Shown here in pieces: positions 3,820 through 63,798 of a stretch of 64,000 nucleotides of DNA. Position numbers and translations under genes: made by a program. This stretch comes from Vicinamibacterales bacterium (GTDB lineage: Bacteria; Acidobacteriota; Vicinamibacteria; Vicinamibacterales; UBA2999): contig DATFRP010000284.1 of NCBI GenBank assembly GCA_035263125.1, forward strand, positions 967 to 64,966. The letters are read 5' to 3'. The notes below the pieces were generated by a model, which saw only the letters and a list, made by a program, of their open reading frames with translations, ran no database searches and was not told the DNA's origin. Numbering within the stretch: the stretch's first letter is position 1; each line of letters begins with the position of its first letter.

Positions 3820-4812
3820 GCGCGGTGATTTCGGCCCACCGAGAGCGGTCGTGACCGCCGAACCCTCGGCGTGCCCTTGCAGGAGACCGCGCAGCCGCGG
3901 CTCGATGTCTTCGCCGAGCGCTTCGCGCATCGAGTCGTGCGCCTTCCGCAGACGCGCCTGCGCCCGGTGGTAGGTCAGTCCCGTCTTCTGCATCACGATC
4001 GCGACCTTCACGTTCCACTGCGCCGTCTTCAGCAGCTTGTCCGCGTCTTCGTAGTCCAGTCCCGTGACGATGTTCACGATGCGACGGGCCCGATCCTTGA
4101 GCTTTTCGGATCCGGTCTGCACATCAACCATCAGGTTTCCGTAGGTCTTCCCGATGCGGACCATGGCGCCCGTCGTCAGCATGTTCAGAATCAATTTGGT
4201 CGCCGTACCCGCCTTGAGTCTCGTGGAGCCGGCGATGACTTCCGCGCCGACGCCAGGCGCAATCGTGAGGTCGACGAACGTCTGCAATTCCGTGCCGGGA
4301 TCGCACGTCACGAAGATGATTCGAGCGCCTGCCTTGCGCGCTCGGGTGAGTGCCCCTCGCACGAACTGCGTCATCCCACTGGCCGAAACGCCGACGACGA
4401 CGTCTTTCTTCGTGGGGCGCAGGCGCGTGATTGCGCGCGTGCCTTCTTCGTAGTTGTCCTCGACGCCCTCCTTCGCGCTGAAGATCGCGTCGCGGCCGCC
4501 GGCCATGATCGCCTGCACATGCTCCGGATCCGTGCTGAACGTCGGCGGCATCTCGGCCGATTCCAGGATGCCGAGTCGTCCACTGGTACCGGCGCCCACA
4601 AAAATGATCCGGCCGTCCTTGCGAAGCGCGGTGGCGATCATCTCGACACCGACCGCGATGCGCTCGCGCTCGCGTCTGACGGCATCGAGCATCTTGCGAT
4701 CTTCGTTGACCATCAGGTCCACGATGTCGTCCGCTGCCAGTTTGTCGATGCCGAGACTGACGGCGTTGATGGCTTCAGTGGGGAGGGATTGCCACTTGGA
4801 ACGAACCGGCAT
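3814..4812 (-). CDS. murQ: N-acetylmuramic acid 6-phosphate etherase
   Basis: 332-aa SIS-domain protein with GRIIFVGAGTSGRLGILESAEMPPTF, VVGVSASG and AGSTRLKAGTATKLILNMLTT. It has a C-terminal extension of about 30 aa and a 6-nt convergent overlap with nagB. Confidence 0.9.
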   Translation of the reverse strand: MPVRSKWQSLPTEAINAVSLGIDKLAADDIVDLMVNEDRKMLDAVRRERERIAVGVEMIATALRKDGRIIFVGAGTSGRLGILESAEMPPTFSTDPEHVQAIMAGGRDAIFSAKEGVEDNYEEGTRAITRLRPTKKDVVVGVSASGMTQFVRGALTRARKAGARIIFVTCDPGTELQTFVDLTIAPGVGAEVIAGSTRLKAGTATKLILNMLTTGAMVRIGKTYGNLMVDVQTGSEKLKDRARRIVNIVTGLDYEDADKLLKTAQWNVKVAIVMQKTGLTYHRAQARLRKAHDSMREALGEDIEPRLRGLLQGHAEGSAVTTALGGPKSPRS

Positions 4813-4939
4813 ACGGCTACAATTCTAGCGAGGCCTGCCTCAGACCGTCGAGCCTGTGAGCCTCGCTAGCCCTCAGCATCTCTTGGCCCCGCGTTGCGGG
4901 GCGAGCCGTCTCGACCGAGGAAGACTTGACTCATTTTTC

Positions 4940-5872
4940 ATGGATCCAGCCGGTCACGACGGCTACCCAGGTCCCTTGAGCAGCGTGTCCTCGCTCGACG
5001 CGTATCTGACACATCTCACCGTCGAGCGGAGGCTCGCGGCGAACTCTGTCGAAAGTTACGCGCGTGATTTGCAACTTCTGGCCGAGCATGCCGCCGGGAA
5101 GCACGTGTCTGTTGACACGCTCACACGTACGGAGCTCGAAGCGTTCGTTCGCGATCTGATGGCCAGCGGCCGCTCGCCTCGGTCGGTAGCGCGCGCGATC
5201 GCCTGCTACCGAGGGTTCTACCGCTTTCTGGTCGTCGACGGACGGCTGAAGGCGAGTCCCGCCGACGATCTGCGGCCCCCGCGTGCGTGGAAGGTCCTCC
5301 CGAAATACCTGCCGGTGGAGGAGGTCGATCGTTTGATCGCACAGCCTGCAGTCGAGACACCGCGTGGACTGCGCGACCGCGCGCTGATCGAGCTCTTGTA
5401 CGCAACCGGCATGCGCGTGTCGGAACTGCTGTCGCTCCGGCCGTCCGACATCAATCTCGAAGCGTCCTACCTGACATGCACAGGAAAAGGAGACAAGCAG
5501 CGGATCGTGCCGATCGGTGATGAAGCGGCAGACTGGGTCCGACAATATCTCAGGGCATCACGTCCGGTGCTGCTCGGCAAGCGCAGCAGTCCGCGACTGT
5601 TCGTCAATGCGAAGGGAGGGGGACCCGGCCTGACGCGAGTAGGCTTCTGGAAGATCTTGAAAGGGTACGCCCGACAAGCGGGGCTGAGCCGAACGATCAG
5701 CCCTCATGTACTGAGACATTCGTTTGCGACGCATCTGCTCGAACGAGGCGCCGATCTGCGCGCCATCCAGATGATGCTCGGACACGCTGATCTATCCACG
5801 ACGCAGATCTACACACACGTCCTCGAGCAGCGCATGCGCGCTGTCTACGACAGGTTCCATCCGAGAGCATGA
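4940..5872 (+). CDS. xerD: Site-specific tyrosine recombinase XerD
   Basis: Collinear with E. coli XerD: LRDRALIELLYATGMRVSEL, GKGDKQRIVPIG, SPHVLRHSFATHLLERGADLRAIQMMLGHADLSTTQIYTHV, ending HPRA. The ATG at 4940 is preferred over the GTG at 4856, which would add a non-conserved leader. Confidence 0.9.
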   Translation: MDPAGHDGYPGPLSSVSSLDAYLTHLTVERRLAANSVESYARDLQLLAEHAAGKHVSVDTLTRTELEAFVRDLMASGRSPRSVARAIACYRGFYRFLVVDGRLKASPADDLRPPRAWKVLPKYLPVEEVDRLIAQPAVETPRGLRDRALIELLYATGMRVSELLSLRPSDINLEASYLTCTGKGDKQRIVPIGDEAADWVRQYLRASRPVLLGKRSSPRLFVNAKGGGPGLTRVGFWKILKGYARQAGLSRTISPHVLRHSFATHLLERGADLRAIQMMLGHADLSTTQIYTHVLEQRMRAVYDRFHPRA

Positions 5873-7554
5873 GACCACTACGTCTGCTGGCGCTCGCGCT
5901 CGTTCTGGGAGCGGCGATCGCCTCGTTCAGTCTGCTGCCATCGTCAGCGCGATCGATGCCGGCCATGGCGGGCCACCGGGCGCCCATTCGCGGAGCGATG
6001 CACATTCACACGCGGCGTTCCGATGGAACGGGCACTGTCGATCAAGTCGCTGCGGCGGCCGCGCGAGCGGGTCTGTCGTTCGTGATCATCACTGATCACG
6101 GAAACTTGAGCCGCGAGCTCGAGCCGCCGTCGTATCGAAGCGGCGTGCTCTGCATCGAGGCCGTCGAAATCAGCACCAAAGGTGGTCACGTTGTCGCACT
6201 GGGGCTGTCGAAGTCGCCGTATCCGCTCGGAGGGGAGCCTCGCGACGTGGTCGACGACATCGCACGGCTCGGCGGCATGTCGATTGCAGCACATCCAACT
6301 TCGTCGAAGGCTGACCTGCGCTGGCGCGACTGGAGTGCTCCGATCGATGGGATCGAATGGCTCAACGGCGACAGTGAATGGCGCGACGAACGCGCGGCGT
6401 CACTCGGACGCACGCTGCTGACGTATCCGTTTCGACAGGCAGAGACGCTCGCGTCGCTGCTCGATCGGCCCGACGCGGCGTTGAGCGCATGGGACAAGTT
6501 GGCGTCCGACCATCCCGTCGTCGCAGTCGCCGCGAGCGACGCGCATGCCCGCATCGGATTCCGCTCAGAAGGCGATCCGTTCGAACCTCGGATTGCGTTG
6601 CATCTCCCGGCGTACGAGCAGGCGTTCCGTGCGTTCTCGATCTCGATACCGGGAGTCGCTCTCGGACACGATGCCGCCACAGACGCCAGGGCGGTGGTCG
6701 ATGCCATTCGACACGGCCATGTGTTCTCGTCGATAGATGGCCTCGCGAGTCCGGCCATCGTCGCATTCACCGCCGAGAGCGGGGGAGTCAGCGCTCAGGG
6801 CGGCGACACGCTGCGTGCGGGCAATCCTGCGACGTTCTCCCTCGAGAGCAACGCACCCTCTGATGCGCGCGTGCGGCTGCTTCGAAACGGCGTCCAGGTG
6901 GCTGACGTCACCGGGCCGAAGCTCATGTACGTGGGAACGGAGGCCGGTGCCTACCGCGTCGAAATCTACTTTCCTCATGCGCCCGGAGTTCCGCCCATCC
7001 CGTGGATTGTGACCAATCCGATCTACCTGAGTGCACGTGGCGCGAGACCTGTCGAGAAGGCCGATTCAGCCGCGTTCACGTCGCGCTATGACGACGGACC
7101 GGCGGATGAATGGCACGTTGAGAAGAGCGCGAACTCGGAAGGCGCCATCAACGTTGTTCGCACAATCGGGGGAACACAGCTGTCGCTTCGGTTCGGGCTC
7201 GGTGGTATGGACGGAGAGAGCCCGTTCGTCGGTTTCGTGATGCCCGCCGGCTCGATCGTCGGCGCCGATCGACTCGCGTTCAGTGCGACCGCGAATCGGC
7301 CGATGCGAATGTCGGTGCAGCTGCGGACGCCAGACGGTGCCGCAGCGAAGCGATGGCAGCGGTCGATCTATCTCGATGAGACGAAACGATCACTGGTGGT
7401 GCCGTTCGGAGAGATGACGCCGCTCGGCGCGGCGTCGGATGCGCATCCGATCGTCGAGCGCGTAAGCGATGTGCTCTTCGTGGTCGACACAGTCAACGCC
7501 GGTCCAGGATCGAACGGTCAGATCTGGCTCGACGACGTGAAGTACGGCCGCTGA
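5869..7554 (+). CDS. Secreted PHP-domain (CehA/McbA-like) metallohydrolase with C-terminal beta-sandwich-like domain
   Basis: 561 aa with a signal-like N-terminus, MRPLRLLALALVLGAAIASFSLL. PHP motifs are GAMHIHTRRSDGTG and SFVIITDHGN. The C-terminal region of about 170 aa ends QIWLDDVKYGR and resembles a carbohydrate-binding/CIA30-like fold; that is inference. The start overlaps the xerD stop (ATGA). Confidence 0.65.
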   Translation: MRPLRLLALALVLGAAIASFSLLPSSARSMPAMAGHRAPIRGAMHIHTRRSDGTGTVDQVAAAAARAGLSFVIITDHGNLSRELEPPSYRSGVLCIEAVEISTKGGHVVALGLSKSPYPLGGEPRDVVDDIARLGGMSIAAHPTSSKADLRWRDWSAPIDGIEWLNGDSEWRDERAASLGRTLLTYPFRQAETLASLLDRPDAALSAWDKLASDHPVVAVAASDAHARIGFRSEGDPFEPRIALHLPAYEQAFRAFSISIPGVALGHDAATDARAVVDAIRHGHVFSSIDGLASPAIVAFTAESGGVSAQGGDTLRAGNPATFSLESNAPSDARVRLLRNGVQVADVTGPKLMYVGTEAGAYRVEIYFPHAPGVPPIPWIVTNPIYLSARGARPVEKADSAAFTSRYDDGPADEWHVEKSANSEGAINVVRTIGGTQLSLRFGLGGMDGESPFVGFVMPAGSIVGADRLAFSATANRPMRMSVQLRTPDGAAAKRWQRSIYLDETKRSLVVPFGEMTPLGAASDAHPIVERVSDVLFVVDTVNAGPGSNGQIWLDDVKYGR

Positions 7555-7570: not shown

Positions 7571-9829
7571 CTATGTGCGAACCGTCAGCAGGAGATAGGC
7601 CGCACCTGCGCCGAAGAGAAGATTCGGCGCCCAGGCGGCAAGCAGGGGCGCGATGACACCGCCCGCTCCCATAGCCGCGAACACGCTGATCGTCGTCCAG
7701 TACATGATGGCGATTCCGATTGCCGCAGCGATGCCCGCCATCGCACCGCTTCGACCGATCGTGACCGCGAAGGGGACTGCCAACAGGGTCATGATAATCG
7801 TCACGAAGGGAAACGAGATCTTTCGCCAGAGCGCCACTTGTTGTTTGACCACATCGAGGCCACTGGCCTCGAGACGGTCGGTGTAGGCGCGCAACTGCGT
7901 ATAGCTCATGAACCTTTCATCGGGCGACTGCGTGGTGAAGTACGACGCCGACTCAAGTGTCTGGCGAGCGTTCGAGAATGGGGTGAGAAGCCCCGGCTCA
8001 CCAGTCGACTCGAATTTCCGCGTCCAGCCGTTCTGGAGAAGCCACGTCGCGTTGCCGGCAGACGTCGCCTGGGTGGCAAACGTGCGCTCTGTGAGCCGCG
8101 TGAGATCGTCACTGAACCGGTAGATCCAGAGGCCTGAGAATCGGTTCGTGCGGTAATCGAAGTAGTTGTAGTGGTAGATGGCGCCGTCCGTTCCCATGAC
8201 CCATCGTCTGTTGAGCACGTCGAACGTCTCAGGTGATCCACCTTTCATGACGTGCTTGATGGCTTCCGCGCGCCGGTTCGCTTCGCCGAGCACCGTCTGC
8301 TCGAGTCCGATGAGCGCCGCACCTGCCAGGACGGCGCCGACGAGCATCGGCACCGCAACTCGATAGAGGCTGATGCCGCACGCCTTCATGACGATGAGTT
8401 CGCTGTTCCTCGTGAGCATGGCGATCGTCACGAGCGATGCGAGCAGCACCGACAGCGGAATGATGTAGTAGAAGTACTGTGGCGTCTCGTAGGCGAGAAA
8501 CATACCCAGCATCGCCCATGTGGCGGCGCCCTTGAACACCTTTTCCGAGAGTTCCGTGAACGCCGAGATGTAGAACACGCTTGCAAGCGCGATCGCGGAC
8601 AGCGCCAGCATGCGTCCGTAGGTGACCGCCACATAGCGATCGAGGATGCTCGGCCACGGCACGGCGGCGCGCCTCAACATGCGTGGGCGGAGCAGTCGCG
8701 TCACCGCTTCGGGCATTGGAATGCGGAGGGGACGATCGCTGCCGCGATTGCGCATCCGGAACAGGACGAGCCCTGCGATCCCAAGGACGATGTTCGGTAA
8801 CCAGGCTCCCAGCCAGGGCGGGATGATATGGCCGCGAATCACCGACTGACCCAGTTCGAGCAGCAGGTAGTAGGCGACGATGATCGTGACGCCGATGACG
8901 AAGTTCGCGAGTCTGCCGTCGCGTCGATTGGTCGCGCCGAGCGCGAGTCCGATCAACCCGAAGACCAGACACGCCGCCGGAATCGAAAACTTCTTGTGGA
9001 TCTCGAAGAGTTGATTGTGCGGGTACGCGCCGTGGGCCAGCGCCTCGGCGGCGCTCGCACGCAACTCGGCGACCGACATCTCCCGAAAGCCTTTCGAGAT
9101 GCCGCCCGAGGGAAACAGTCGCTCCGGGTCGAGGCGGAGCACATACTGCTCGAACCGGAACAGATCGTTCTTGCCCGCCGCGTCGACCATGTGCCTGGCC
9201 CCATCGTGCAGCACCATCTCCACGGTCTTCTTCTCGCGGTTGATCAGAGTCTCGCCGCGTCGCGCGAGATAGATCGCCGAGCCATCGCCTGAGCGGTTGT
9301 CCGCCATGAACACGCCGTTCCATCCACCTGTCTGCGGCACGTCGCGGACGTACAGCACGATGTTCGGGAACTCGTTGTAGAAGACGCGTGGCTTGACCTC
9401 GCCTTCGGCCTGCGCCGCGGTCACGTTGAAGGTGATTTCGCGGAACGTCTGGTTCGCGTCGGGAACCGAGACGAGGAGTACGTAGGCGGTGATCGCCGCG
9501 CAGACCGCTGACATCAGCCCGACCGGCCGCATGAGGCGCAGCGGGCTGACGCCACACGCCTGCAGCGCCACGAATTCGCGATCAGCCGAGAGGCGGCCGA
9601 ACGTCACTAGCAGCCCAAGCAGCAGCGACATCGGGATGGTGACGCCGAGCGCCATCGGGACGAGAGCGACGACGAGGCGGAGGACGACCATCGTCGGTGC
9701 GCCCTTGGAGATGTAATCCTCGGCGTACTTCATCAGCTCGGGAATAATGATGAGAAACGTGAAGACGAGCAGACCGAGCCCGAACGGCATCAGAATCTGC
9801 CGAATCACGTACCGGTCGAGAATTCGCAT
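7571..9829 (-). CDS. Fused LptF-LptG lipopolysaccharide export permease (two YjgP/YjgQ modules in one ORF)
   Basis: 752-aa uninterrupted ORF. The first module starts MRILDRYVIRQILMPFGLGLLVFTF. The second starts after a basic linker with ILDRYVAVTYGRMLALSAIALASVFYISAF. Each module has the multi-TM plus periplasmic beta-jellyroll layout of LptF/LptG. Confidence 0.8.
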   Translation of the reverse strand: MRILDRYVIRQILMPFGLGLLVFTFLIIIPELMKYAEDYISKGAPTMVVLRLVVALVPMALGVTIPMSLLLGLLVTFGRLSADREFVALQACGVSPLRLMRPVGLMSAVCAAITAYVLLVSVPDANQTFREITFNVTAAQAEGEVKPRVFYNEFPNIVLYVRDVPQTGGWNGVFMADNRSGDGSAIYLARRGETLINREKKTVEMVLHDGARHMVDAAGKNDLFRFEQYVLRLDPERLFPSGGISKGFREMSVAELRASAAEALAHGAYPHNQLFEIHKKFSIPAACLVFGLIGLALGATNRRDGRLANFVIGVTIIVAYYLLLELGQSVIRGHIIPPWLGAWLPNIVLGIAGLVLFRMRNRGSDRPLRIPMPEAVTRLLRPRMLRRAAVPWPSILDRYVAVTYGRMLALSAIALASVFYISAFTELSEKVFKGAATWAMLGMFLAYETPQYFYYIIPLSVLLASLVTIAMLTRNSELIVMKACGISLYRVAVPMLVGAVLAGAALIGLEQTVLGEANRRAEAIKHVMKGGSPETFDVLNRRWVMGTDGAIYHYNYFDYRTNRFSGLWIYRFSDDLTRLTERTFATQATSAGNATWLLQNGWTRKFESTGEPGLLTPFSNARQTLESASYFTTQSPDERFMSYTQLRAYTDRLEASGLDVVKQQVALWRKISFPFVTIIMTLLAVPFAVTIGRSGAMAGIAAAIGIAIMYWTTISVFAAMGAGGVIAPLLAAWAPNLLFGAGAAYLLLTVRT

Positions 9830-12296: not shown

Positions 12297-13121
12297 CTAA
12301 CGTCTGGAGGCTCGGAGCTCTCGAATGATGTTCTCGAGCGCCTCGATGATTTCGTTTGCCTCAACCTTGCTCTTGCGGAAGCTCAATCGCAGATCGAACG
12401 CCTTGGTCGTTGGCTTGAAGGTAAAGACGTACGCCTTCGGTCGGCCCGGCTTGACCTTCGCCGTCTCCTGGCGCGCCAGCTGACGCGTCGCCTGGCCCTG
12501 TCCGGCGAGTTTCTCGACCAGGGCGGTCATTTTCTTTGGATCGGCCTGTCTAACTATCTGTAAAAGCGTGGACTTAGAGGTAATGTCGGCCAGCCGACAA
12601 AGATTTCGAACTTCTTCAGGCATCGTTGCCAGCGACAGCGACTCGGTAATGGCCGTCCGTGACTTCCCCAGCTTCCGAGCCATCTCTTCGTGGGTGTGCC
12701 CGCACTTCTGGACCAGCTGCTGGAGCGCCTCGGCCTCTTCAAACGCCGTCAGGTCCTTCCGCTGAAGGTTTTCGACGAGCGCGAGCTCCATCACCTCGAC
12801 GTCGCCGACTTCCCGAATAACTACCGGTACCTCACGCAGCCCGACCTGAACGGCCGCGTGATACCGACGTTCGCCGGCGATGATCTGATAGCGCCCGAGC
12901 CGCTGCCGCACAACCAATGGCTCGATGATGCCCTTCTCCTGAACGGACGCCATCAACTCGGACAGATCGCCCATCACCTGCCGGGGCTGACCGGGATTCG
13001 GATCCAGGAGGTCGATCGCGACCATGCGTCCGACCGGCTCGCCGGCGGATGTCGCGAGCGCCTCCACGTAGTGCTGGTCGTGCCGCATTCGCAGCGTCTC
13101 AGGCAGTCCGCGCTTCGACAC
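12297..13121 (-). CDS. parB: Chromosome partitioning protein ParB
   Basis: Motifs are LLDPNPGQPR, GIIEPLVVR, IIAGERRYHAA and LVENLQRKDLTAFEEAEAL, plus the HTH HEEMARKLGKSRTAITESL. The start is uncertain: GTG 13121 (VSKRGLPETL), ATG 13088, or the track start 13166 inside parA. Confidence 0.85.
   Translation of the reverse strand: MSKRGLPETLRMRHDQHYVEALATSAGEPVGRMVAIDLLDPNPGQPRQVMGDLSELMASVQEKGIIEPLVVRQRLGRYQIIAGERRYHAAVQVGLREVPVVIREVGDVEVMELALVENLQRKDLTAFEEAEALQQLVQKCGHTHEEMARKLGKSRTAITESLSLATMPEEVRNLCRLADITSKSTLLQIVRQADPKKMTALVEKLAGQGQATRQLARQETAKVKPGRPKAYVFTFKPTTKAFDLRLSFRKSKVEANEIIEALENIIRELRASRR
12584..12599. promoter_or_regulatory. Candidate ParB-binding (parS-like) palindrome, copy inside parB
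   Basis: TGTCGGCCAGCCGACA is a 16-bp palindrome with one central mismatch. It matches 17 of 18 positions with ATGTCGGCCGGCCGACAA at 14027-14044. Function is inferred only. Confidence 0.3.
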
Positions 13122-13872
13122 GTTCGATGACCTCCTCGCACAGGCTGTAGTAATCGGTCGCGCCACTCGATTCGGGCGCGAACGTGAAGATCGATTCCTT
13201 GTAGGCCGGACTCTCCTCCAGCCGGACGCTCTTGCTGATCACCGTCCGGAAGACCTTCCCCCCGAAGACTTTCGTTATTTGTTCGCGTATATCCCGCGCC
13301 AGCGCTGTGCGCTTGTCGTGCATGGTGATGACGACGCCGAGAATGCGCAGCGCCGGGTTGGGACGCTGTCGGACTTTCTCGATCGTCTCGAGCAAGTCGT
13401 CCGTTCCTTCGAGCGCGAAGTACGACGACTGGATTGGAATCAGAAGATGAGTCGCAGCCACCAGGGCGTTCACTGTCAGCAGACCGAGCGCCGGTGGGCA
13501 GTCGATCACGATGTGCGCGTACTCCCCGGCGAGCTTGTCGATCTTGTCCTTCAATCGGAAGTGCGCATCCAGTTCCCCGACCAGGCGCGCCTCGAGCTTC
13601 GCGAGTGCGATCCGCGCCGGGGCGATCCACAGATTCTTCTGCGTCGTGGCTGGCTGGATGACGTGGGCGAGGTCGCACATCGGATCCGAGAATGCGTCAT
13701 ACGTGCTGCGTCCGATGGCGCCGAGTTCCAGAAACGAGATGCTGCTGTTCGCCTGGGGGTCGAGATCGATCAGGAGCGTTTTCCGCCCTCGCATGGCGAG
13801 CGCCGCTGCGAGGTTCACGGCAGTCGTGGTCTTGCCGACGCCCCCCTTCTGATTGGCGATGGCAACGATCAT
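13099..13872 (-). CDS. parA: Chromosome partitioning ATPase ParA/Soj
   Basis: 257 aa beginning MIVAIANQKGGVGKTTTAVNLAAALA (deviant Walker A), followed by LLIDLDPQANSS. Confidence 0.9.
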   Translation of the reverse strand: MIVAIANQKGGVGKTTTAVNLAAALAMRGRKTLLIDLDPQANSSISFLELGAIGRSTYDAFSDPMCDLAHVIQPATTQKNLWIAPARIALAKLEARLVGELDAHFRLKDKIDKLAGEYAHIVIDCPPALGLLTVNALVAATHLLIPIQSSYFALEGTDDLLETIEKVRQRPNPALRILGVVITMHDKRTALARDIREQITKVFGGKVFRTVISKSVRLEESPAYKESIFTFAPESSGATDYYSLCEEVIERVEARTA

Positions 13873-14027
13873 GTACGACCCTGCCTTACAGATACGCTGA
13901 AAGGCAGGCTCGAATCGAGCGTGCGGAGGACGTTAGCCGCTGAAACTCCGGTGTGTCTCACGGGGCGCAATCCTGTGAAGGGTGCGCCCATTGTAGGAAC
14001 GGCTGTGCAGGGTGTCAACCGTTGAGA

Positions 14028-14043
14028 TGTCGGCCGGCCGACA
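14028..14043. promoter_or_regulatory. Candidate ParB-binding (parS-like) perfect 16-bp palindrome upstream of parA
   Basis: TGTCGGCCGGCCGACA is a perfect palindrome. It lies 2 nt beyond the BFN gene stop and about 155 bp upstream of the parA start. Function is inferred only. Confidence 0.3.
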
Positions 14044-14045
14044 AT

Positions 14046-14531
14046 TTACATCTTGTACTTCCCAAGTTCCGATGGGTCAAGACTTTCGAGCCATTTCTGC
14101 AGTCGCGCGTTGTCCATCGGCTCGGAGAAGACCTCGACGCTTTTGGCGTTGTCGATGACCGTCTCCTCGACCAGAATCGGCGACCTGGTCCGCAGGGCGA
14201 GCGCGATCGCATCGCTCGGCCTCGCATCGACTGCCACACGTTCACCACGAACCGTGAGATGAATCACGGCAAAAAACGTGTTGTCACGCAGGTCGCTGAC
14301 GACGACCCGGTCGACGGAGCCATCCAGGTCCGTGATGATGTTCCTGAGCAGGTCATGCGTCATCGGTCGCGGCGTCGCTACGTTCTCGATTTGAAGGGCG
14401 ATCGCGTTGGCCTCGAAGAGCCCCACCCAGATCCGGAGGATGCGCTCCCCCAACTTGTCCTTGAGAATCACGATCGGCATGTTGGTGATGGGGTCGACCA
14501 TCAGGCCCTTGATGCTCATTTCAATCAGCAT
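14046..14531 (-). CDS. Bifunctional nuclease (BFN/DUF151) family protein
   Basis: 161 aa with MPIVILKD...RILRIWVGLFEANAIA, TPRPMTHDLL and ARPSDAIALALR, which are characteristic of DUF151. Confidence 0.8.
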   Translation of the reverse strand: MLIEMSIKGLMVDPITNMPIVILKDKLGERILRIWVGLFEANAIALQIENVATPRPMTHDLLRNIITDLDGSVDRVVVSDLRDNTFFAVIHLTVRGERVAVDARPSDAIALALRTRSPILVEETVIDNAKSVEVFSEPMDNARLQKWLESLDPSELGKYKM

Positions 14532-14567
14532 GGCTCGCTCTCCGACCGCGCCTGAAACTGGTAGCCC

Positions 14568-15920
14568 TTACACCGCCTCGCCCCAGAGGCTATGGGGCCC
14601 GGCGCGCGTGATTCGCACGTCCACAGTGTGCCCGATCCACTCGCGGGACGATCTGTCCCCCCCACTATCGGCAGGCACGGGCAGGTTCACTACCGTGTTG
14701 CCGCCCGTCCGCCCCGAGATCTCATCCGAGCGCCGACGACTCGCGGAATCCACGAGCACTCGCTGCATCGATCCGACAGTCTCTTCGTGAAGACGCGTCT
14801 GAATCTCCCGCTGAAGTGTCTGCAGGACGACAATACGCGTCGTCTTCTCCGTGGCGCTGACATCGTCGGCCATTCGGAGAGCGGCCAGTGTGTTCGGACG
14901 GGGCGAGTACTTGAACGAGAACATGCTGTGAAATCCTACGGTCTCGGCCAGTGACAACGTGTCCTCGAAGTCTCCAGTCGTCTCCCCCGGGAACCCCACG
15001 ATCACGTCCGTGGAGAGTGTAATGCCGGGAACCGCCTCACGCACGCGGTCGACGAGATCGAGATACTCCTCGCGAGTATGACGCCGCCGCATCGCTTTGA
15101 GGATCCGGGAAGAGCCTGACTGCACCGGCAGATGAAGATGCTTGCAGACCGTAGGCAGATCTCTAACGGCCTCGATGAGCCGCGGGGTGGTGTGACGGGG
15201 ATGCGGGCTTGCAAAACGAACCCGTTCAACCCCGGCCACGCCGCTCACTGCCTCGAGCAGCTCGGCGAAATCGCATCCCGGATCGTCCGGAGCCGAGTAA
15301 TGGTTCACGATCTGCCCCAGCAGTTGAATCTCCTTGCGCCCGGATTCAACCGCGTTTCGGACCTCCGCGAGGATGTCGGCCTTCGCGCGCATCCGCTCGT
15401 GCCCGCGCGTGTACGGGACCACGCAGAAGGCGCAGTGATCGTTGCACCCTTCGATGATGGTGACATACGCCTTCACGGGATCTGATCGATGGGCCATTCC
15501 CAGCGGAAACGACACGTCGTCCCAGAGACCGATATCGACCGTAGCGAACGCCGAGTGGTGCGCGCGGTCGACCAGGACCGGAAGCATCTTGAGCCGCTGC
15601 GTGCCGACGACGACATCGATGACGTGGCCGTTCGACTTCTTGACCAGTGAGGCTCCCTCCTGCTGGGCCACACATCCAGCCACGGCCACCACCGGCGCCC
15701 GTCCTGTCTCGTCACGCATGACGCGCAGTTCACCGAGGCGCGTATAGAGCTTCTCCTCGGCGTGCTCGCGAACGCTGCACGTGTTGATCACGATGACGTC
15801 CGCGTCGGCCTCGTTGCTGGTCGGCTCGTAGCCGGCTTGTTCGAGCAGACCGGCCATGCGCTCAGAGTCGTGGACGTTCATCTGACAGCCGAACGTCTCG
15901 ATGAGATATCGCTTCGCCAT
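14568..15920 (-). CDS. miaB: tRNA-2-methylthio-N6-dimethylallyladenosine synthase
   Basis: Motifs are YLIETFGCQMNVHDSE, VIVINTCSVREHAEEK, the radical-SAM CNDHCAFCVVP, and a TRAM-like C-terminus. The ATG at 15920 is preferred because it lies just after the recN stop at 15925. The track start 16010 would overlap recN. Confidence 0.9.
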   Translation of the reverse strand: MAKRYLIETFGCQMNVHDSERMAGLLEQAGYEPTSNEADADVIVINTCSVREHAEEKLYTRLGELRVMRDETGRAPVVAVAGCVAQQEGASLVKKSNGHVIDVVVGTQRLKMLPVLVDRAHHSAFATVDIGLWDDVSFPLGMAHRSDPVKAYVTIIEGCNDHCAFCVVPYTRGHERMRAKADILAEVRNAVESGRKEIQLLGQIVNHYSAPDDPGCDFAELLEAVSGVAGVERVRFASPHPRHTTPRLIEAVRDLPTVCKHLHLPVQSGSSRILKAMRRRHTREEYLDLVDRVREAVPGITLSTDVIVGFPGETTGDFEDTLSLAETVGFHSMFSFKYSPRPNTLAALRMADDVSATEKTTRIVVLQTLQREIQTRLHEETVGSMQRVLVDSASRRRSDEISGRTGGNTVVNLPVPADSGGDRSSREWIGHTVDVRITRAGPHSLWGEAV

Positions 15921-15924
15921 GGAA

Positions 15925-17634
15925 TCAGGAGCGCGCTCGGGTGCGACCGAGGGTTTCGCTTTCGCCTTTCGATTTGTGTTTGCCTTTCGCCTGTCCTCGA
16001 GACTGCTCAAGGCTGCCCGCCGCCAGCAGATCGCGAGCGCTCGCCCGCACCTGGTCGGTGACGATCGCGCCTCCGATCATGCGGCCAATCTCCTCTACGC
16101 GTCCATCGTCATCGAGCGCCCGAACCGAGGTGACGGTGCGAGTACCGCGAACTGTCTTGTCGATGTGGAAGTGGGTCGATGCGCGCGAGGCGATCTGTGG
16201 CAGATGCGTGATGCACAGCACCTGGAACCGCTCGCCGAGTCGACCGAGTCGCGATCCGACGACATCGGCGACCCGCCCGCCGATCCCGGCATCCACTTCA
16301 TCGAAGATCAACGTCTTCCCGCCCTGGAGGTCCACCGACATCGTCTTGAGGGCGAGCATGACGCGTGACAGCTCTCCGCCAGACACGATCCGAGACAGCG
16401 GACGGAGATCCTCGCCGGGGTTGGGTGACACGTAAAACTCGGCTCGATCGATGCCGCGCTCGGTCCACTCGTCGGCCGAGACCGCAGCCTCGTTGAATCG
16501 TACCTCGAAGCGGGTCTGCTCCATCGCAAGCTCGGCCAGCAGCGCTTCGAGCGGCGCGGCGAACTGCCGGGCGGCAGCGCGTCTTTTCGACGACAACGTG
16601 CGGGCAGCGTCGAGATACTCGGCCGACGCCGCGGTCAGCGCTCGCTCGAGGTCTGCGGCACTCTCGCCGGCGCCCGTCAGGAGGCCGCGCTCGTTTCGAA
16701 GCGCGCTTCCCTTCTCGAGGACGTCGTGGAGCGTTGGACCGTACTTCCGCTTCAGGCGCTCGAGCAGCGCCAGGCGGTCTTCGACGTGCTGCAAACGGGC
16801 CGGTGATGCATCGATGCCATCGGCGTAGCGCTGAAGAAACGCCGCCAGATCTTCGAGCTGCGGCTTGATCTCGTCGCGCGCCGCCAGATGCCCGGCAAAC
16901 TGCGCGTCGATCGTCGCGAGTTCGGCGACGCGTTTCCACACGCGGCCGAGACCCGCCAGAACGGCCTCGTCGCTCTCGTACAGCGTCGAGTAGCTCTCCT
17001 CGCACAATCGCTTGACGCGTTCGGCGTTTGCGAGAACGTGCTTCTCCGTCGCGAGCTCATCGTCCTCGCCGGCACGGGGCGCCGCTTTTTCGATGTCGTT
17101 CAACTGGAAGTCAATCAGGTCGAGGCGTGCAGCCTTCTCCCGGCCATCCATGCGGGCACGATCGAATTGCTCTCGTAGCGTTCGCACCGATTGCCACGCC
17201 GTGGCCACTCGCTCGACCCACGTGTCGAGGTGCGCGTAAGTGTCGACGAGCGGGAGATGCGAGAGCGGATCGAGCAGCGCCTGATGCTCGTGTTGTCCGT
17301 GCAGCTCGACGAGCCTCGACGAGAGATCGCGCAGAGCCGCCGCGGTCGCGACTGCGCCATTGATGAACGATCGGCTGCGCCCCTGACTCGTGACCTCGCG
17401 TCTCACGAGCAGCGTCCGGTCGCCATCCTGGAAGACTGCTTCTATTGTGGCCTGCGGCTCACCCGTACGAACGAGATCGGCAGAGGCACGTCCACCCAGC
17501 AGAAGCCCAACCGCCTCGACCACGATCGACTTGCCTGCACCAGTTTCTCCCGTCAAGACGTTGAAGCCGGGGCCGAACTCGACCTCGACGGACTCGATGA
17601 CCGCCAGGTTGCGGATGCGGAGGACGCGCAGCAT
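15925..17634 (-). CDS. recN: DNA repair protein RecN
   Basis: 569 aa beginning MLRVLRIRNLAVIESVEVEFGPGFNVLTGETGAGKSI. It has a long coiled-coil middle and C-terminal SGGELSRVMLAL and LIFDEVDAGIGG motifs. Confidence 0.9.
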   Translation of the reverse strand: MLRVLRIRNLAVIESVEVEFGPGFNVLTGETGAGKSIVVEAVGLLLGGRASADLVRTGEPQATIEAVFQDGDRTLLVRREVTSQGRSRSFINGAVATAAALRDLSSRLVELHGQHEHQALLDPLSHLPLVDTYAHLDTWVERVATAWQSVRTLREQFDRARMDGREKAARLDLIDFQLNDIEKAAPRAGEDDELATEKHVLANAERVKRLCEESYSTLYESDEAVLAGLGRVWKRVAELATIDAQFAGHLAARDEIKPQLEDLAAFLQRYADGIDASPARLQHVEDRLALLERLKRKYGPTLHDVLEKGSALRNERGLLTGAGESAADLERALTAASAEYLDAARTLSSKRRAAARQFAAPLEALLAELAMEQTRFEVRFNEAAVSADEWTERGIDRAEFYVSPNPGEDLRPLSRIVSGGELSRVMLALKTMSVDLQGGKTLIFDEVDAGIGGRVADVVGSRLGRLGERFQVLCITHLPQIASRASTHFHIDKTVRGTRTVTSVRALDDDGRVEEIGRMIGGAIVTDQVRASARDLLAAGSLEQSRGQAKGKHKSKGESETLGRTRARS

Positions 17635-30198: not shown

Positions 30199-30924
30199 TT
30201 AGTCCAATCGAAAGTCCGTCCCCAGATAAATCCGGCGCACATCCTCATCCGCCGCCAGAGAATCCGGGGTGCCGCTCCGGAAAATCACACCGTCGTGAAC
30301 GATGTACGCCCGGTCGGTAATTCTGAGCGTCTCACGCACGTTGTGATCCGTGATCAGCACGCCGATGCCGCGCTCCTTCAGGTGGAACACGATCTTCTGA
30401 ATCTCCGTCACCGCGATCGGATCGATGCCCGCAAACGGCTCGTCGAGCAGCATGAAGCGCGGCGACATCACCAGCGCGCGCGTGATCTCGGCTCGCCTGC
30501 GCTCACCGCCCGAGAGCGTGTACGCCGGCGCAGACGCGAGCGGCGTCAGATGCAACTCGGCCAGAAGATCCGCCAGTCGCGCCTTACGGGTGGCCGCGTC
30601 GAGATCCAGCGTTTCCAGGATGCCGAGGATGTTTTGCTCGACCGTAAGGCCGCGAAAGATCGACGGCTCCTGCGGCAGATACCCGATGCCCTTGCGCGCC
30701 CGCAGATACATCGGCGCCTCGGTCACATCCTCGTCGTCGAGCACGACACGCCCCGAATCCGGGCCGGTCAGACCGACGGTCATGTAGAACGTCGTCGTCT
30801 TGCCGGCGCCGTTGGGGCCCAGCAGCCCGACGATTTCTCCCGAGCCCACTTCGATGCTGACACCCCGCACCACCGTGCGCCCGCCGTACGACTTCGTGAG
30901 TTCCTGAGTTCGCAGCGTAGACAC
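30199..30924 (-). CDS. lptB: LPS export ABC transporter ATP-binding protein LptB
   Basis: [41 protein letters not shown] aligns with E. coli LptB. Other motifs are [15 protein letters not shown] and [11 protein letters not shown]. The GTG at 30924 gives a canonical length. The track start 30978 overlaps the upstream gene. Confidence 0.9.
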
Positions 30925-61965: not shown

Positions 61966-63798
61966 GTGACCATGACAACCGCTATTGACGACGAGCAGCG
62001 AGACTCCGGGCGCCTCGGCCGCGCCCTTGCGCTGGTGCTCGCCCGCTACGGAACGCAGATTCGTCGACGGCCGTGGCTGTCCGCAGCCGCCCTGCTGTTG
62101 CCAGCCGTCGGCGACGTGCTGACAGGCTATGCGCCGCCGCTCGTCGTGGCGCGGATCCTCGGCGCATTCGCGCGCAACGAAGCGCTCTCGCCGGCGACGC
62201 TCGTACCCTATGTCCTGACGTTTGCGAGTCTGTGGGTAGGAGGCCAGGTCGTCTGGCGTCTGGCAACCGCGGCCATCATCCGCATCGAGGTCCGAGCGAT
62301 CGAAGCGCTGTACATCGAGGCGATGGACGAACTGCTCGCCAAGGACCTGGCGTTCTTCCACGACAATTACGCTGGCTCGCTGACCAAGCGCGCGCTCGGA
62401 TATGCACGACGCTTCGAAAGCGTGTTCGACGTCCTCACCTTTCAGGTCGCGGCGACAGTGCTTCCCCTCGGCTTCGCGGGCGTCGTGTTGTGGCGCTACT
62501 CGCCGTGGCTCGTCGTCCTCCTGATCGGCATGCTCACGACAACGCTGATGATCGTTGTGCCGCTCATCCGCCGGCGGCGCCGACTCGTCGATGTGCGCGA
62601 AACCGCGTCGAATGTGCTGGCCGGACATGTCGCCGACTCGATCGCCAACGCGGAGGCCGTCCGTGCCTTCGCGCGCGAGGCCGAAGAAGCGCAGATTCAT
62701 GCGTTCAACGTCACGGACCTGGGCGCGAAGACGCAACGGTCATGGGACTACCAGAATCTGCGAATCGACATGGTGGCGGCGCCGATGCTCATCCTCACCA
62801 ACACGCTCGGCCTCATCGTGGCGCTGGTCACCAGCGCTGGCACGGGCGCGAGTCTCGAGGCGGTGTTCCTGACGTTCAGTTACTACGCCACCGCGACGCG
62901 TGTGATGTGGTCGTTCAACCAGATCTACCGCAACCTCGAGAGCTCGCTGACGGAGGCGGCGCAGTTCACCGAACTGCTGCTCGACCCGCCTGCCGTCGTC
63001 GATGCCCCCGTTGTCGACGCGTTCACACCAGCGGACTTCAGCGTCGAACTGCGACAGGTCAGCTTCCGCTACGCGCCCACGCAGCCGCTGCTCTTCGATC
63101 GCTTCTCCCTGCGGATCGGCGCGGGCGAGAAGGTCGGGCTCGTGGGCCGATCCGGCGGTGGCAAGACCACGTTGACGCGGCTGTTGATGCGATTCGCCGA
63201 TGTGGAGCGCGGCGAGATCCTCGTTGGTGGACAGGCCATCGATCGGGTACCGCAAGCTTCATTGCGCGACGCGATCGCCTACGTGCCACAGGACCCGTCG
63301 ATGTTCCACCGTAGCGTCGCCGACAACATCCGTGTCGGCCGGCCGAGTGCAACCGACGCCGACGTGCGGCGCGCCGCGCAGCTGGCACACGCGGCCGAGT
63401 TCATCGAGGCGCTCCCCGCCGGGTACGAGACGCTCGTTGGTGAGCGCGGCGTGAAACTGTCAGGCGGCCAGCGTCAGCGTGTGGCGATTGCACGAGCGAT
63501 CCTGAGGAACGCACCGATGCTGATCCTCGACGAAGCCACCAGCTCGCTCGACTCGGAGAGCGAGGCGCTCATTCAGGACGCGTTGTGGGAGCTCCTCTCC
63601 GGACGCACGGCTATCGTAATCGCGCATCGCCTATCGACGGTGCGGCGGATGGATCGACTCGTGGTGCTCGATCGGGGTGAGATCGTCGAAGAGGGCACGC
63701 ACGAGACGCTGGTGGCGAGCGACGGCATCTACGCGTCGCTCTGGGCGCACCAGTCAGGCGGATTCCTCGCGCTCGATCCCGAAGGGACGACAGTGTGA
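61966..63798 (+). CDS. ABC exporter, fused transmembrane + ATP-binding protein (MsbA/type I exporter-like)
   Basis: 610 aa with a six-TM N-terminal half. The nucleotide-binding half has [26 protein letters not shown] and [11 protein letters not shown]. Confidence 0.9.

Follow-up and report, generated by a model that had tools for sequence, protein, structure and literature searches.

Where does ParB load on a chromosome whose parAB locus has no canonical parS site beside it? Few cis-elements of bacteria are held to be as conserved as chromosomal parS, and annotation, the mapping of origin domains and ParB-based DNA labelling all assume its canonical sequence. Here, we consider this question for a stretch of 64 kb (hereafter the window) of the core chromosome of a metagenome-assembled genome (MAG) of the Vicinamibacterales (Acidobacteriota), in which a GC-rich 16-bp palindrome occurs once upstream of parA and once inside parB. 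This cis-element is real and strongly conserved, and we think it likely to be a non-canonical parS, at which the ParB of a divergent chromosomal ParABS system of Vicinamibacteria, Thermoanaerobaculia and related Acidobacteriota would load.

The features of the locus, in coordinates of the window, are the following:
14028..14043: intergenic candidate parS TGTCGGCCGGCCGACA, a perfect 16-bp palindrome, A-flanked at 14027-14044.
12584..12599: intragenic copy TGTCGGCCAGCCGACA, inside parB, A-flanked at 12583-12600, with one central mismatch.
12297..13121, minus strand: parB, encoding a chromosomal-type ParB cytidine triphosphate (CTP) hydrolase of 274 amino acids from GTG 13121 or 263 amino acids from ATG 13088.
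13099..13872, minus strand: parA, encoding a Soj-type deviant Walker A ATPase of 257 amino acids (AAA_31 6e-51, 173 bits; also CbiA and MipZ).
13990..14018, minus strand: predicted sigma-70-type parAB promoter (TTGACA, 17 nt, TACAAT; 11 of 12 consensus matches).
14046..14531, minus strand: BFN-domain gene (BFN_dom 1e-39), whose stop codon abuts the intergenic palindrome.

Between the intergenic copy and its neighbours there are 2 nt on the side of the BFN stop codon and 155 nt on the side of the parA start (13872), and immediately downstream of the copy follows the predicted parAB promoter, with 9 nt between the palindrome and the -35 hexamer. On the coding strand, the intragenic copy reads TGT CGG CTG GCC GAC A and encodes Cys-Arg-Leu-Ala-Asp, within the codons L-C-R-L-A-D-I-T directly after the helix-turn-helix (HTH) motif of ParB. 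Both of its 7-bp half-sites are intact and its sole deviation is the central dinucleotide; a perfect palindrome would require CCG (Pro) instead of CTG (Leu) at this point, so that the central mismatch is imposed by the protein. With up to one mismatch allowed, exactly two matches to the palindrome are found in the 64 kb, compared with a mean of 0.01 copies in dinucleotide-preserving shuffles, none of 100 of which reached two. In its length of ~16 bp and its two-fold symmetry, the element has the form of a parS site. The one other near match, TGTCGGCCGGCCGAGT at 63333-63348, has two mismatches, with one of its half-sites broken, and overlaps a long open reading frame (ORF); it is within what chance provides.

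An earlier sequence-only reading of the window had reported the perfect palindrome past the BFN stop codon and ~155 bp upstream of parA, the second copy with a single central mismatch at CRLADIT after the HTH, no further copy and no canonical parS near parAB, all of which hold at the positions given here, and its gene identities are borne out by ParB_N plus HTH_ParB/TIGR00180, a ParA-type ATPase and BFN_dom. It had also described the palindromes as bracketing parAB, which stands as regards the presence of two copies and falls as regards true bracketing, since one of them is inside parB. Its proposal that they are lineage-specific candidate ParB loading sites is favoured by the linkage to parAB, the selection on the in-gene copy and the dyad symmetry described below, and by the lack of canonical sites nearby. 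Within the window, the canonical parS TGTTNCACGTGAAACA has no match with two or fewer mismatches near parAB, and the only matches with up to three mismatches, at 30374 and 55861, are ascribed to chance. Across 818 kb (the window and 45 loci), neither a convincing canonical parS nor a convincing Noc-binding site (NBS, TATTTCCCGGGAAATA) was detected, the two chance-level matches with two mismatches being far from parAB. In a literature search, the palindrome was found in no paper, and nothing relevant was found on parS of Acidobacteria or on non-canonical parS.

The distribution of the palindrome was followed through 43 loci from GTDB species genomes with ParB identities of 49-99%, nearly all labelled Vicinamibacterales, Vicinamibacteria or Acidobacteriota (individual loci are referred to below by L and a number); the nearest ParB, with 99% identity, is that of the Vicinamibacterales MAG DASWZV010000141.1. 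In 711 kb from 42 related genomes, the core GTCGGCNNGCCGAC is confined to the interval from -972 to +1811 relative to the parB start, except for a copy at +7258 in L028, which lies just upstream of lptFG; in this locus, parB and lptFG are ~6 kb apart, whereas related loci have lptFG as the next gene after parB. Of the 42 genomes, 40 keep one or more intact sites, and the contigs of the other two end before the upstream spacer. The element is thus found at parAB in one to few copies, which is within the known range of parS. In the close relatives L001-L005, L009, L010, L013 and L016, a perfect copy occupies the same intergenic place, 1-3 nt past the BFN stop codon and separated by a variable spacer of 9-31 nt from a TTGACA-17-TACAAT promoter; both promoter hexamers, and not the palindrome-promoter spacing, are kept in most relatives with an upstream copy. 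Another clade of Vicinamibacterales has its intergenic copy downstream of parB and before lptFG, sometimes in duplicate, and an extended -10 element of lptFG follows it after ~27 nt. Two intergenic copies are present in L022, L058 and L127 and three in L106, a turnover that is typical of parS. Only the intragenic copy is present in Thermoanaerobaculia and in ~19 Vicinamibacterales genomes.

Two of the intergenic arrangements have a structure of their own. In L022 (11200-11400), the spacer between parB and lptFG contains a ~117-bp tandem duplication with a GGTCGGCCGGCCGACA site in each unit. In L174 (8880-8960), where lptFG and an aminotransferase gene converge, the DNA between them contains an inverted repeat longer than the site itself; an extra site, CGTCGGCATGCCGACA, forms the centre of this repeat and may double as a hairpin.

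The Joint Genome Institute (JGI) metagenomes were scanned for exact matches to the 16-mer, and at least 120 matching stretches were obtained. Of the 120 matches listed, 49 adjoin homologues of the parA, parB or BFN gene of the window, ~22 belong to an unrelated low-GC repeat element, and the remainder are in scattered, mostly coding, contexts. The low-GC element (L048, L050, L064, L068, L071, L073, L079, L097, L099, L101, L111, L112, L131, L133, L136, L142, L146, L149, L151, L155, L163 and L165) is found on contigs of 40-48% GC and consists of CCCTGTCGGCC-type units with a GGTAAACACTACATCGGCC flank and an A/T run around the identical 16-mer. No parAB genes are near these loci, and the element looks like a dispersed repeat from an unrelated low-GC organism.

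The copy inside parB is identical in sequence in 37 of 42 related parB genes. Among 42 distinct parB genes, the five site codons have entropies of 0.28, 0.17, 0, 0.53 and 0 bits, and the site codon has the lowest entropy of all conserved columns of its amino acid for Arg (rank 1 of 17), Leu (1 of 18), Ala (1 of 12) and Asp (1 of 5), while the site Cys is the sole conserved Cys column and hence has no columns for comparison (permutation p ~1e-4 for the constraint). RLADI is by far the most constrained run of five codons in parB. Codon bias is ruled out as the cause, as the joint probability of the five site codons under codon usage is 0.0036, with minority codons at three of the five positions (TGT, 20% of Cys; CGG, 22% of Arg; GCC, 33% of Ala in the window genes). 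The intragenic copy is under nucleotide-level selection, which acts on the DNA and not on the protein. Some genomes carry synonymous breaks of the intragenic copy (GCC to GCA or GCG, TGT to TGC), and in all eight of the eight covered cases an intergenic copy is present.

The same codons carry the site in far more divergent genes. ParB proteins with 41-51% identity to that of the window retain both half-sites as Cys-Arg-(CNN)-Ala-Asp and differ in the site centre (CAG, CAT, CGT or CGC), as in the following loci:
L170: CRQADI, site in parB TGTCGGCAGGCCGACA.
L173: CRRADI, site in parB TGTCGGCGTGCCGACA.
L172, L174/175 and L184-186: CRHADI, TGTCGGCATGCCGACA, a perfect in-gene palindrome.
L176/177 and L178-183: CRRADI, TGTCGGCGCGCCGACA, a perfect in-gene palindrome, which in L178 is the sole copy within 10 kb.

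The variable residue of the site is always L, R, H or Q; its codon is CNN in every case, in keeping with the C that half-site position 7 requires. The label Thermoanaerobaculia is attached to close homologues of the L176/177 ParB. In L169, the intragenic site is missing and TGTCGGCGCGCCGACA is found between the BFN gene and parA, and L067, L089, L095 and L130, with ParB proteins 44-47% identical to that of the window, have a perfect CCGG-centred copy beside parAB. Judged from these loci, the link between the site and parAB extends over two or more classes of Acidobacteriota, and the internal copy is the ancient and most widespread one.

Taken over all copies, the recognised unit would consist of two inverted 7-bp half-sites around a free central pair, TGTCGGC-NN-GCCGACA, usually flanked by A/T (consensus search form TGTCGGCNNGCCGACA). 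In 83 distinct sites, from backgrounds of 60-70% GC, the outer T is conserved in 94%, the next base outward is A/T in 83% and the following base is A in 60%. The A/T flanks are themselves symmetric and extend the palindrome to ~20 bp, and in intergenic copies the dyad symmetry runs through the centre, both of which suggest a protein site rather than a hairpin.

The protein most likely to read this site is the one encoded around it. ParB of the window has the features of a chromosomal ParB, that is, a ParB_N CTPase domain (2.8e-28, 98 bits), an HTH_ParB domain (8.1e-16, 58 bits) and an adjacent Soj-type ParA; it matches TIGR00180 (5e-45; 153.6 bits against a cutoff of 58.45), contains the CTP-pocket motifs GERR and ENLQR, and has Thermus Spo0J, Caulobacter ParB and B. 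subtilis Spo0J as its closest solved relatives (E ~1e-35). GTG 13121, which lies within the 3' end of parA, is the probable start of translation, and the resulting N-terminal extension SKRGLPETLR (13089-13121) is conserved as KRGLP..MRHD in ParB proteins down to ~45% identity; by resemblance only, this peptide may correspond to the N-terminal motif with which canonical ParB activates ParA. The sequence pattern of the C-terminal segment suggests a dimerisation domain of the usual strand-strand-helix type. In the arginine patch GERRxR (~12860-12890, IIAGERRYHAA), the third Arg is His in this protein and Gln or Arg in relatives, which is unusual for chromosomal ParB proteins and might affect CTP handling or bridging.

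In Caulobacter numbering, Q162, G170, K171, S172, N178 and R204 contact parS and are conserved in ~1,800 ParB and 400 Noc orthologues, R173 forms a hydrogen bond with guanine 1 of parS, and R201 of Noc reads guanine -6 of NBS (Jalal et al., PMC7383237). We mapped the ParB of the window onto Caulobacter numbering with a HMMER alignment (the chain index is 10 below the PMC7383237 numbering), with the following result:
Position 162: canonical Gln, His here.
Positions 170-173: canonical Gly-Lys-Ser-Arg, unchanged here.
Position 178: canonical Asn, Glu here.
Position 179: canonical Thr, Ser here.
Position 201: canonical Gly, Lys here.
Position 204: canonical Arg, Leu here.

The full canonical contact set (Q162, G170, K171, S172, R173, N178, G201 and R204) is thus altered at four residues, and His, Glu, Lys and Leu at 162, 178, 201 and 204 are invariant or nearly so in the clade. 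They mark a large ParB subfamily with the motifs T-H-x, I-T-E and S-K-S, compared with canonical T-Q-E, (A/V)-N and G-H-x-R, which makes up the majority of the best 150 representatives in a search of 1.84 billion proteins. The sequence-only reading had stated that the outer TGT/ACA of the site is kept and the inner half-site changed, which holds, with TTCA replaced by CGGC; it had also called for a comparison of the HTH residues with Spo0J and Noc, and in the protein Arg173 is retained while the four residues named are changed. The pattern of residues and bases is coherent: R173 and its G1 (of TGT) are both kept, position 6 is C, as in NBS, and residue 201 is Lys, a long basic residue, and where the 'invariant' residues have been replaced, the site has a new sequence, CGG, at positions 3-5.

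Set against the known systems, the locus resembles canonical ParABS in most respects. Like TGTTNCACGTGAAACA, the palindrome is a perfect 16-bp inverted repeat with one to few copies at parAB and identical outer TGT/ACA, and its candidate reader has ParB_N with GERR and ENLQR, an HTH with G-K-S-R, a C-terminal domain and a Soj-type ParA partner. The differences from canonical parS concern half of the sequence, with 8 of 16 bases in common: each half-site has CGGC in place of the inner TTCA, and any central pair is allowed. In addition, Q162, N178, G201 and R204 of canonical ParB are H, E, K and L. Lin and Grossman are said to have reported in 1998 a parS inside spo0J of B. subtilis, and the acidobacterial site resembles it in being embedded in the gene of its own (here candidate) binding protein. 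The B. subtilis in-gene parS encodes VPRET, in the linker before the C-terminal domain, whereas the site here encodes C-R-x-A-D in the DNA-binding domain after the HTH and is conserved across classes. The two in-gene sites are located in different places of the protein and so would have arisen independently.

Noc and its NBS TATTTCCCGGGAAATA provide a natural precedent of a specificity switch in the ParB family by way of a few contact residues (PMC7383237). The protein described here is similar to Noc in combining a ParB-family HTH with a different 16-bp palindrome, in the C at position 6 and in a long basic residue at 201 (Arg in Noc, Lys here). It differs from Noc in residue 173, which is Arg, and position 1, which is G, both as with parS, in the new positions 3-5 (CGG), and in being paired with ParA at a parAB locus instead of being a Firmicute paralogue. 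The combination of NBS, Gln173, Lys179, Lys184, Arg201 and no ParA partner that marks Noc was not found, the 818 kb contain no NBS with two or fewer mismatches, and with the NCBIfam model of Noc the protein reaches 153.7 bits, below the cutoff of 315. A second comparison is with KorB of RK2 plasmids, a ParB-family CTPase that acts on a non-parS palindrome, OB (TTTAGCSGCTAAA), and has roles in both transcription and partition. Unlike KorB, the protein described here matches the KorB domain with 21.3 bits, under the cutoff of 22.3, its match to KorB in PDB (6e-15) compares with 1e-35 for ParB, and it is encoded in a core chromosome context, with plasmid homologues of at most 38% identity.

By homology with the ParB proteins of Caulobacter and Bacillus, ParB would be the binder of the palindrome, its loading would be CTP-dependent and the resulting complex would drive segregation. 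In the proposed model, a ParB dimer would place its two HTH domains on the half-sites, binding would promote CTP-dependent closure of the N-terminal gate, for which GERR and ENLQR are present, and the closed clamp would slide to flanking DNA, giving rise to a partition complex across the parAB locus on which ParA, and probably also SMC, would act. The upstream copy adjoins the parAB promoter, and loading of ParB at this point may therefore also modulate the transcription of parAB. In evolutionary terms, we lean towards the view that many Acidobacteriota, at least Vicinamibacteria and Thermoanaerobaculia, replaced the otherwise near-universal canonical centromere with TGTCGGC-NN-GCCGACA through the remodelling of ParB residues that ~1,800 other ParB proteins conserve, that the primary centromere is within the stretch of parB encoding the DNA-binding domain, and that reader and site have been locked together across the divergence of classes.

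Some observations weigh against a centromere role or against its generality. Proximity to oriC is a hallmark of parS, and no DnaA box with up to one mismatch is found within the 64-kb window, no dnaA is among its ~30 annotated ORFs, so that the origin is not visible in the window, and GC skew around parAB is uninformative as to the origin. Intergenic copies tend to be located just upstream of the parA or lptFG promoters, as would suit the operator of a transcription factor. The compensation of intragenic breaks by intergenic copies has the expected direction and is not significant (Fisher p = 0.15), and the placement of Lys201 and Leu204 depends on an alignment that crosses a one-residue gap. 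L171 has a mismatch in one half-site and no other copy. In one Acidoferrales relative whose ParB is of the same subtype, the 10 kb on either side are free of TGTCGGC-type sites, so that the rule is not phylum-wide without exception. A candidate in its place, TGATTCCGGAATCA, a lone perfect 14-bp palindrome in parB (L166 10506-10519, also in L167 and L168) situated 8 codons upstream of the homologous site position, was rejected, as it occurs once in 20 kb, which chance could provide; it may be a chance occurrence or a different site.

Several other explanations of the palindrome were weighed. ParB could bind the palindrome and use it, much like KorB, mainly as an operator or silencing nucleation point for parAB, lptFG and other genes, while segregation depends on other sites. 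The upstream copy, 9-31 nt from a conserved near-consensus parAB promoter, the copy of the other clade ~27 nt upstream of the lptFG extended -10, the weak, sub-threshold KorB-domain match and the lack of any sign of oriC within the window would all be in keeping with such a role. However, the distance to the promoter is not conserved, which rules out an operator of fixed geometry, and the most conserved copy lies inside parB, downstream of any parAB promoter; where it is the only copy, as in Thermoanaerobaculia and ~19 Vicinamibacterales genomes, it cannot be the operator of the parAB promoter. Moreover, every partition feature of ParB is present together with the adjacent Soj-type ParA, and chromosomal parS sites are commonly located at parAB, where one site can suffice, a single parS occurring in Xanthomonas (PMC7333895). 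We regard a mainly regulatory site of ParB as unlikely, noting that the roles of centromere and ParB-bound operator are not mutually exclusive. If, on the other hand, another dimeric transcription factor used the palindrome as an operator for parAB and the flanking genes, ParB would read a different sequence. Dyad-symmetric 16-bp sites beside promoters are typical operators, and the link between this site and ParB comes from sequence comparison. Such a factor would have no need of a site that two classes have maintained in the 3' half of parB even though this demands minority codons; the site is essentially present at parAB only, where a regulon would place it at many loci, its distance and orientation towards promoters vary, and the clade-wide changes in ParB contacts call for a new cognate site, for which no alternative conserved palindrome is seen at parAB. 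An operator of this kind is accordingly improbable in our view.

Finally, the palindrome could be a structural or selfish repeat without a centromere role, be it a repetitive extragenic palindromic (REP)-like element, an RNA hairpin or terminator, a restriction-related palindrome or a Xer/dif-type site. It is GC-rich and able to form a hairpin, the same 16-mer is part of the repetitive element at ~22 low-GC metagenomic loci among the matches listed, the extra copy of L174 is in a longer inverted repeat between convergent genes, and a XerC/D-like gene is 7 kb away. A dispersed REP-like palindrome is rejected for this lineage, though, on the basis of the window, with two copies in 64 kb, and of the 711 kb of relatives, with a single one beyond ~2 kb of parB. 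An intrinsic terminator is likewise ruled out, as no T-run follows the palindrome on either strand and a terminator scan makes no call, and an Rfam search of the window gave no match. The loop centre of a hairpin need not be self-complementary, yet it is so in intergenic copies, and synonymous positions of the intragenic copy are constrained. The surroundings of the low-GC repeat are different and lack parAB, and dif is a single 28-bp site with a 6-8 bp spacer and not a set of 16-mers. Of the explanations considered, a repeat of this type is the one we hold to be most improbable, and a non-canonical parS remains the reading that we prefer.

If the palindrome is indeed the parS of these bacteria, it would explain the lack of a consensus parS beside parAB in abundant soil bacteria and break the assumed universality of chromosomal parS by a natural, phylum-scale re-specification. 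It would also be a second natural example, beside Noc, of the evolution of ParB-family specificity, involving residues thought to be fixed (Q162, N178 and R204), and one in which binding site and binding protein are constrained in the same codons. In addition, the tagging of loci in several colours would gain an orthogonal ParB/parS pair that is ready for use.

The surroundings of parAB are those of a chromosome. The annotated core housekeeping genes of the window include a gene for a XerC/D-like recombinase, fused lptFG, a GH57 gene, parBA, the BFN gene, miaB and recN; tolQ with adjacent tol-pal genes, genes of a phosphotransferase system (PTS), rapZ, hprK, hpf and rpoN; and lptB/A/C, recJ, accA and guaA. 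The replicon is a chromosome and not a plasmid, a plasmid origin being ruled out by these neighbours and by the low identity (at most 38%) of the homologues in PLSDB. The synteny of BFN, parA and parB is found at all related loci, and the gene order miaB-BFN-parA-parB-lptFG is common from Vicinamibacterales to Thermoanaerobaculia (including L166, L169, L171, L176, L178 and L184), which argues for a vertically inherited chromosomal system. The BFN-domain gene is regarded as context, which does not imply a role in the ParABS system; as a gene for a 'bifunctional nuclease', it is steadily paired with parAB in the window (14046-16010) and at distant loci. The lptFG gene (7571-9829) is a single gene of 752 codons whose product has two LptF_LptG matches and represents a fused LptF-LptG permease, and it adjoins parB in many relatives. 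A few kb from parAB, the gene for the XerC/D-type tyrosine recombinase (4856-5872) is followed by a PHP-domain gene (5869-7554), and in the distant relative L171 a recombinase gene (4582-5514) is also located beside parB.

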